Made by a program: the position numbers and the translations under genes. Under the pieces are notes generated by a model, which saw only the letters and a program-made list of their open reading frames with translations, did no database searches and was not told where the DNA came from. Below, in pieces: positions 26,569 to 27,845 of a stretch of DNA of 29,948 nt (position 1 is its first letter; each line of letters begins with the position of its first letter). The stretch covers positions 1 to 29,948 of the IMG/VR virus record IMGVR_UViG_3300020528_000009; one strand, 5' to 3'. The DNA comes from a virus. Lineage: Duplodnaviria > Caudoviricetes.

Positions 26569-26642
26569 ACCGAATGGTCCGAACGGTTTGACGGAAGAAA
26601 TCTTATAAGTTTCCTGAACAGGTTCAATTCCTGTATTCGGTA
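26569..26642 (+). tRNA. tRNA-Ile(UAU)
   Basis: Acceptor ACCGAAT/ATTCGGT+A, D stem TCCG/CGGA, anticodon arm GAAAT-CTTATAA-GTTTC, T arm ACAGG-TTCAATT-CCTGT; G at position 8; no encoded CCA. Confidence 0.82.
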
Positions 26643-26677
26643 CAAATCCTTTTAGATAAAGGATAAGAACTATCATT

Positions 26678-26686
26678 TGATACAAT
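26678..26686 (+). promoter_or_regulatory. putative extended -10 promoter
   Basis: TGaTACAAT upstream of the Rpf-like gene leader. Confidence 0.5.
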
Positions 26687-26865
26687 GGTAAGACTATATA
26701 TTTCACTTAGGAGGTGATGCTTATTGATATAACTTTGTAAAACAAGTAGCATTAAAAATGATGCAGTTAATCTTGTTTTGCAACCTTAGCGTATGCTAAA
26801 ACAATTAATCAAGATGTTTGTAGACATTATTGGTTTGTTGAAAACAAAAGTTTTAAGGAGCAAAA

Positions 26866-27528
26866 ATGAAAACTAATCATAAAATAAAAAACATGCTGTT
26901 ATGTACAGCATTATTAATTGGAATTACGGCAACGAATGCCTCAGCAAAACAGAATAAAACTGAAGTAATTCCAACACTCGCTTTTAGCGAAAATGGAAAA
27001 CCAAGAGCATTAGATTTATATTGGCATAGAATGGCACAATGTGAAACTGGTGGTGATTGGAAAGATAAGGGAACTTGGTCAGGTGGTTTAGGAATATATA
27101 AACAAACCTGGTCAGGTTATGGTGGAAAAGAATTTGCACCAAAACCAGAACTTGCAACAATAGATGAACAAATTATTATTGCAAATAGGATCTCAACTCA
27201 GGGATATCAAACAAAAAATGAATTCCGGACATTTGAGGACAGACAAAAGAATAAACCATTCTTTAGAGAACCAGTAGGCTTTGGCGGCTGGGGTTGTAAA
27301 AAAAATGTTGGAAATCCAGTTTTGTTTAAAAAATTCCCTGCAAAAACACTTCTTCGTGAATATCATCTTGGCGAAAGAAGTAAGTATGTATTTGGTATAC
27401 AGAAAATTATTGGCGTTAAGTTTGTAGATGGTTATTTCGGACCATATACAGATTCCGTTTACAATAAGTTTATGAGCAAATACAGAAAATATCTAATTGC
27501 TGAATACGAGAAGTATAAAACTCAGTAG
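26866..27528 (+). CDS. secreted Rpf-like lytic transglycosylase with PG-binding-like C-terminus
   Basis: Signal peptide ending NASA; WHRMAQCETGGDW, GGLGI...TW..YGG..FA..P..AT..EQI.IA.R; C-terminal IQKIIG...DGYFGP.T. Confidence 0.85.
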   Translation: MKTNHKIKNMLLCTALLIGITATNASAKQNKTEVIPTLAFSENGKPRALDLYWHRMAQCETGGDWKDKGTWSGGLGIYKQTWSGYGGKEFAPKPELATIDEQIIIANRISTQGYQTKNEFRTFEDRQKNKPFFREPVGFGGWGCKKNVGNPVLFKKFPAKTLLREYHLGERSKYVFGIQKIIGVKFVDGYFGPYTDSVYNKFMSKYRKYLIAEYEKYKTQ

Positions 27529-27540
27529 TAAGCAAAAAGA

Positions 27541-27609
27541 ACGGTTGATTGTTACCGTAAAACCTCATGCCTGACATATGTGTGAATAAAAACAATCAAT
27601 ATGTCAACC
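27541..27609 (+). ncRNA. candidate double-pseudoknot RNA
   Basis: Two hairpins whose loops each pair perfectly (8 bp) with adjacent segments of the 3' tail. Confidence 0.6.
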
Positions 27610-27610
27610 C

Positions 27611-27682
27611 GCTTCTATAGTTAAAGGGATATAACTACGGACTTCTAATCCGTTATTTTAGGTTCGAATCCTAATGGAAGCA
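27611..27682 (+). tRNA. tRNA-Arg(UCU)
   Basis: Acceptor GCTTCTA/TGGAAGC+A, D stem GTTA/TAAC, ACGGA-CTTCTAA-TCCGT, TTAGG-TTCGAAT-CCTAA. Confidence 0.9.
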
Positions 27683-27684
27683 CT

Positions 27685-27740
27685 GAGAGATTAAGTATAG
27701 GTTTGTAACTGGATATTCCTACCTATGCTTAATCTCTTTT
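27685..27740 (+). terminator. long hairpin with short U-tract after tRNA-Arg
   Basis: GAGAGATTAAGTATAGGT / ACCTATGCTTAATCTCTT then TT. Confidence 0.65.
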
Positions 27741-27845
27741 CGTATCCCCAAAAACAAATAAGGAAAGGTTAACCGATTTGAGCGCATACTCAATTTACCT
27801 AAATAGTAACAATAAACAAGATGGCGTAAGCCAAAAGGAAAGAAA

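Follow-up and report, generated by a model that had tools for sequence, protein, structure and literature searches.

The window, that is, the whole stretch of 29,948 nucleotides of viral DNA analysed here, carries near its 3' end a series of features that are all read on the + strand. An Rpf-like transglycosylase gene (26866..27528; PF06737, E 1.4e-14) ends 12 nt before a compact RNA element, called the knot in the following. Behind the knot lie a gene for tRNA-Arg(UCU) (27611..27683) with no encoded CCA and a long hairpin followed by a U-rich run (27685..27738; z -6.05), which occurs in variant versions in relatives and is likely the terminator of the unit. No terminator-like site was found on the + strand of the window in the interval from the gene to the tRNA.

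The knot is 65 nt long. It has two hairpins, and successive stretches of its 3' tail pair with the loops of these. In hairpin P1 (27541..27558) the stem is formed by 27541-27545 (ACGGT) and 27554-27558 (ACCGT), and its loop (27546-27553) is the 5' strand of a pseudoknot helix, PK1. An A-rich linker (27559..27564) leads to hairpin P2 (27565..27585), in which 27565-27570 (TCATGC) pairs with 27580-27585 (GTGTGA); the loop of P2 starts with an invariant CU (27571-27572) and continues with the 5' strand of a second pseudoknot helix, PK2 (27573-27579). The 3' strand of PK1 (27591..27598), the partner of loop 1, is directly followed by that of PK2 (27599..27605), a helix of 7 bp with four invariant A-U or U-A pairs and three covarying ones. 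The remaining spacer (27606..27610) is variable, measures 3-5 nt among relatives and is the predicted 3' overhang after a cut by RNase P at tRNA +1. A first-pass annotation, made from the sequence alone, had placed both hairpins, the tail and a tRNA 4 nt after the 8-nt tail end, and all of these coordinates check out. It had also described two loop-tail helices of 8 bp each, which holds in the window and for PK1; across the family the second helix has 7 bp.

The strands of the helices follow one another in the order a b a' c d c' b' d'. P1 with PK1 and P2 with PK2 form two H-type pseudoknots that interlock, each lending part of the other's long loop. By the usual H-type geometry, the CU would lie in the major groove of PK2 and pass the four invariant A-U pairs there, and the minor groove of P1 would take up the A-rich linker. 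No other base is left in the window for crossing PK1, and therefore one of two pairs is likely open, either the U-A pair that closes P1 or the first pair of PK1. ViennaRNA does not model pseudoknots; it folds P1 and PK2 with a modest z of -2.1.

With a descriptor for two hairpins with loops complementary to adjoining tail segments, the knot was the sole 8+8 or 7+7 loop-tail match on both strands of the window. The same search of 150 dinucleotide shuffles, again on both strands, gave no match even at 7+7 bp, in line with the initial view that such an arrangement is unlikely by chance. A looser descriptor run over 732 kb of collected loci returned background matches of at most 7+7, and a direct-repeat search of the window revealed nothing relevant.

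Relatives of the knot and their covariation

Several approaches were used to collect relatives, and together they yielded 23 sequence types with pairwise identities as low as 47%: 22 that make up alignment A2 and one degenerate member (L225). A search led by the upstream neighbour protein gave eight and then nine loci, and the element with compensatory changes was present in all nine. The generic descriptor uncovered a second, diverged copy in one of the phages (G001/L135). A consensus pattern matched 20 viral contigs, all of which are members. Of the 104 loci picked up by a tRNA-anchored pattern, 19 are members, with a model check on the 86 loci not already recognised. Scanning metagenomes added at least 16 members among 117 of ~220 stretches, some of them duplicating viral records, and the remaining 101 metagenome loci were checked against the model. 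The last viral scan identified 23 members among 59 loci, namely 22 in contigs already known, which the model check left out, plus one other (L410). A first viral pattern had been too loose, its 119 loci containing no member by descriptor, and served as background only.

Six weak model matches of 18-29 bits (L339, L338, L344, L278, L471 and L229) were dropped; they had been selected by the same pattern and their helices are not intact. L225 (28 bits) was retained, as it shares synteny and tRNA with other members. Its P1/PK1 half is weakened and its P2/PK2 half is kept and lengthened. Among bacterial and archaeal genomes none of 24 pattern matches is a member, and for the element blastn against GenBank phages produced nothing beyond short matches at chance level. 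A match upstream of tRNA-Arg in Vibrio phage JA-1 is attributed to chance, with a coding gene ending 8 nt before that tRNA. In the collections searched, the distribution is phage-only.

The evidence for a conserved RNA structure comes from A2, which was aligned with MAFFT on sequence only. Over PK1, P2 and PK2, 94% of the 484 cells are paired and 15 of the 22 pairs show two-sided changes. These are found at seven of eight pairs in PK1 (96% of cells paired) and at five of six pairs in P2 (93%, many of them G-U). None of 500 shuffles reached the observed values on four of five measures, and 76 of 500 did so on the measure of further pair types; such comparisons are to be read knowing that related sequences can beat shuffles and that the tested structure was derived from one of the aligned sequences. 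Controls in which the pairing was slid along the alignment reach only 32-41% pairing, and given this and the two-sided changes in every helix an artefact is implausible.

As its loop is one base shorter in the window group, P1 was re-registered by script across the 22 members. The inner G-C pair of P1 is present in all 22, its outer pairs switch among C-G, A-U and G-C, and one member (L184) has only three pairs. The eighth PK2 pair forms in only 10 of 22 sequences; PK2 is therefore taken as 7 bp and the invariant CU as unpaired. Altogether 15 columns are invariant, most of them in the P2/PK2 half and the unpaired CU among them. Many members were found by patterns that force CU, AUAUG and AAUAU, and the invariance of CU and AUAU is partly circular because later search patterns forced those letters. 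Independent support is provided only by the protein-led set and the descriptor-found second copy and, for CU, by the tRNA-anchored scan.

G-U cells are common in P2 and P1. These wobbles fix the reading as + strand RNA and rule out a DNA-level or minus-strand reading. An alternative closure between GGTTGA and TCAACC, suggested at the outset, is complete in one of 22 sequences and is not conserved; in the members with short spacers, which this count leaves unscored, the spacers cannot supply it. The structured RNA family itself is confirmed, and the covariation, the wobbles and the lack of an Rfam family support the early description of a novel structured non-coding RNA.

Comparison with known RNAs

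At gathering or E-value thresholds, Rfam 15 contains no match over the element. The fold is highly compact, covaries strongly, has an invariant core and belongs to no Rfam family, and it is small enough to synthesise and test directly. The motif freshwater-2 (RF02980), from freshwater metagenomes, is of similar size (84 model positions), but its model does not match. In five member genomes searched with E up to 10 and without a positive control genome, none of the 30 weak matches listed falls at the element, and membership is rejected on this lack of a model match.

Among the ribozymes the comparison starts with theta, a minimal HDV-like type. According to PMC10879173 these RNAs are tRNA-associated in phages; their proposed task is the trimming of 3' trailers from tRNAs, for which a catalytic C in J4/2 is required. 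Like the knot they are small double-pseudoknot RNAs beside phage tRNA genes, and the strand order of the knot is, by our derivation from the HDV fold, a circular permutation of the HDV order. Together with a size, a double pseudoknot and an invariant core that are generally like those of small ribozymes, this makes a self-cleaving ribozyme of a new class a candidate, cutting within or 5' of the knot and splitting the mRNA from the pre-tRNA. If self-cleaving, the knot would add a ribozyme class.

There are several differences. HDV-like and theta ribozymes have the nested double-pseudoknot order P1-P2-P3-P1.1 with a P1.1 of 1-2 bp, whereas the strands of the knot run in the order given above and its equivalent helix has 7 bp. 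Their catalytic C starts J4/2, whereas no positionally fixed C was present at the permuted location in the 14 5' flanks examined; a loose search for C[AG]A matches 22 of 22 members, anywhere in the sequence, and carries no information. Theta lies at the tRNA 3' end, whereas 20 of the 23 knot types lie 5' of a tRNA and only one, in a genome designated G024, is 3' of a tRNA-like gene, 44 nt off. The phages concerned also differ, being those of gut Bacteroidota and Bacillota for theta (PMC10879173) and WhiB-bearing ones for the knot.

Other known cores are lacking as well, as the first-pass annotation had stated for hammerhead, pistol, twister and HDV/theta. Hammerheads, including the pseudoknotted permutations covered by PMC10085705, need CUGAnGA, which occurs in none of the 22 members, and the hammerhead GAAA and an HDV L3-like motif occur in one each. 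Pistol and twister gave no Rfam match, and loose versions of their motifs appear in only six and seven of 22. The invariant bases of the knot are mostly paired and could be structural. A ribozyme that processes the tRNA 5' end, one of the roles put forward initially, is disfavoured because the spacer varies in length (3-5 nt) and sequence and so cannot set that end; moreover, two members have no tRNA downstream. A new self-cleaving ribozyme with another task we rate as improbable, the size and the core of the knot being the points in its favour.

Another likeness is to two stable RNAs of phage T4, species 1 and 2 (rnaC and rnaD), which reportedly lie beside a tRNA-Arg and are processed from tRNA transcripts. 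By description they resemble the knot in being small, encoded among phage tRNA genes and without an assigned task. We found no description of the motif in the literature searched. It may sit among the 8,495 unnamed candidates of Fremin 2023 (PMC10690425). We place the element among the structured small RNAs of phage tRNA regions, as an RNA family not catalogued before whose interlocked fold is unusual.

Setting in phage genomes and the neighbouring tRNA

The 20 types linked to a tRNA all sit 3-5 nt before tRNA-Arg(UCU), with a spacer that differs in length and sequence. They occur in WhiB-bearing phages of ~105 kb, usually with one copy per genome; a model search, in which members match by construction, returned a single copy in 23 of the 24 virus records, the remaining one, G001, having two. 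WhiB was found in all five complete genomes tested. Together with the Rpf-like gene it points to actinobacterial hosts, and so far the RNA family is confined to actinophages. One complete genome stands apart, G024, which belongs to an unrelated phage of 210 kb whose RecA is 24% identical to that of the window; the others measure 100-109 kb and have RecA proteins 72-89% identical to it.

AGA is the main Arg codon of the phage, accounting for 146 of 263 Arg codons in 27 ORFs of the window, and tRNA-Arg(UCU) plausibly matters to it. One reading of the knot is a gate on tRNA-Arg maturation. RNase P protein contacts the single-stranded leader at N-8 to N-3, as given in PMC11143913, and PK2 would cover this stretch from N-4 or N-6 outwards. 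By occupying it, the knot might tune or time the supply of the AGA-reading tRNA, which would suit the codon usage and the specific link to tRNA-Arg(UCU). However, a conserved alternative fold is absent (1/22), and complementarity to the tRNA is not above shuffles in 14 of 14 members tested, the longest complement being 4-7 nt, which also speaks against the pairing to a cognate tRNA that T-box-like leaders show. The full fold is retained where no tRNA follows. We hold such a gate to be decidedly improbable.

In five near-complete genomes only five of 15 tRNA matches carry a knot. The second copy in G001/L135 precedes a tRNA-like minihelix (L135:1306-1352) with an acceptor stem and T arm and without a D or anticodon arm, behind which ~145 nt of further hairpins and then the tRNA-Arg-linked copy follow. 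In two types, L294 and G024, there is no tRNA behind the knot. The knot of L294 is followed by a ribosome-binding site and start codon, and that of G024 comes 44 nt after a tRNA-like gene with a weak score (22.6 bits).

Some further observations concern the tRNAs and these two loci. Related phages carry tRNAs for Leu(UAA), Lys(UUU), Ile(UAU) and Arg(UCU), all reading A/U-rich codons. In the window ARAGORN finds a tRNA-Ile(UAU) at 26569-26643 that is not listed at the Rfam gathering score. The tRNA-like gene of G024 (C1:109187-109279, minus strand) is degenerate and ~15 kb away from the main tRNA cluster, and in L294 a long multibranched fold (minus strand, ~120-270; -44 kcal/mol) is located directly upstream of the knot.

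Possible roles at RNA ends and the upstream region

The function that we infer for the knot starts from what would happen at its 3' end. In our preferred reading, to which we assign a probability of about 40%, host RNase P would free the knot, which would then persist as a nuclease-resistant small RNA with a protected 3' end and act in trans via its fold. Release by RNase P and a nuclease-resistant knot, both put forward in the first-pass annotation, would fit the anatomy; a decoy for defence proteins was a further suggestion made there. The knot would be co-transcribed with tRNA-Arg(UCU) and released when RNase P cuts at the first base of the tRNA. Its 3' tail would then be buried in PK1 and PK2. 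Bacterial 3'-5' exonucleases need an overhang longer than 3-5 nt, and a cut at +1 would leave 3-5 nt; on this model a stable product is therefore likely. The upstream mRNA would be trimmed from the 5' side back to P1, and trans action would most plausibly proceed via a putative protein partner bound at the invariant CU/AUAU core.

The acceptor stem and T arm are the part of a tRNA that RNase P reads, and the minihelix behind the second G001 copy, which consists of these parts, would support release by this enzyme. RNase P is the usual maker of tRNA 5' ends, and the T4 tRNA-Pro/tRNA-Ser dimer (PMC11143913) is a precedent for processed RNAs that are set only 3 nt apart. As a general route, such release is countered by G024 and L294, whose 3' ends would not be RNase P-made.

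For action in trans speak the covariation in P1, P2, PK1 and PK2 and the invariant columns, which exceed the needs of a plain end-cap. The knot also behaves like a gene: it is single copy, its upstream partner is exchangeable and it is present in an unrelated 210-kb phage. Furthermore, there are sister tRNAs without a knot and full knot copies without a downstream tRNA (G024, L294). On the other side stand the partial circularity of the invariance, the weakened P1/PK1 half of L225 and the closeness to stop codons, which suits a cap in cis. Should the knot act in trans, it would open a practical way into the long-standing problem of what the stable small RNAs encoded among phage tRNAs do.

A cap in cis is an analogy with MALAT1 and MEN-beta, in which a triple helix protects the 3' end after removal of mascRNA. 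In both settings a 3' tail is buried in a compact structure, directly followed by a tRNA or a tRNA-like element with its RNase P site; the eukaryotic structure is a U-rich/A-rich triple helix with no homology to the knot, and the analogy is functional only. Once RNase P has removed the tRNA, the knot might shield the new 3' end of the upstream mRNA. The overhang is short in all 20 tRNA-linked types, and the minihelix copy resembles a bare RNase P site. The distance from the stop codon of a lytic-enzyme-like gene to the start of the knot is at most ~15 nt in many members. Cases with a stop codon shortly before the knot are the window group, the second G001 copy, L168, L184 and L225, the last of which keeps and lengthens precisely the P2/PK2 half that buries the tail. 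The lack of a + strand terminator-like site between gene and tRNA in the window fits as well.

Yet a plain hairpin would suffice as a cap, and tRNA-Ile, -Leu and -Lys of the same phages lie ~10-20 nt past stop codons without a knot. The upstream gene is exchangeable too, being Rpf-like, another lytic-enzyme-like gene (family F11, read as a lytic transglycosylase by eye) or a third protein family accompanied by a separate structured domain, and the copies in G024 and L294 lack a downstream tRNA. We see the cap as possible but unlikely; a knot that did cap RNase P products would mean that phages have a mechanism parallel to the one at the MALAT1 3' end, and it could serve as a portable module for stabilising RNA. 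A wider proposition joins two of these ideas: the interlocked H-type pseudoknots in permuted-HDV order might be a new small self-cleaving ribozyme class or a bacterial counterpart of the MALAT1 3' end, with actinophages using a tRNA or minihelix as an RNase P handle to define and protect RNA ends. This, too, we judge unlikely. Stop-codon readthrough is ruled out, the distance from stop to knot ranging from overlap to >200 nt.

Lake and river RNA libraries (eight of 12 runs) contain contigs that match parts of the upstream gene and its leader with up to 100% identity. The element is covered by no RNA contig of these runs, and as short RNAs assemble poorly this gap is not proof of absence. The leader of the Rpf-like gene (26680-26865) is conserved and structured and lies behind a promoter-like -10 word. 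Of its 44 predicted pairs, eight covary among six relatives. Against Rfam RT-17 (cut-off 40.4) the 3' half of the leader reaches 30.9 bits, a match not reproduced at the equivalent place in four related records. A related leader precedes the lytic-enzyme-like gene in L135 and L225, and a cis-regulatory RNA is possible.

A different structure is found directly upstream of the knot in L150 (895-978) and its relatives, a separate domain of ~85 nt with three helices and an invariant U-rich loop, in which three of 25 pairs covary over 12 sequences. An own promoter for the knot in these members was considered and rejected, since the words TATAAT and TATACT are arms of a conserved hairpin in this domain. 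Finally, a short conserved motif at 27778-27797 of the window, past the terminator-like hairpin, is possibly a phage promoter element; in L391 it lies ~260 nt upstream of the knot.
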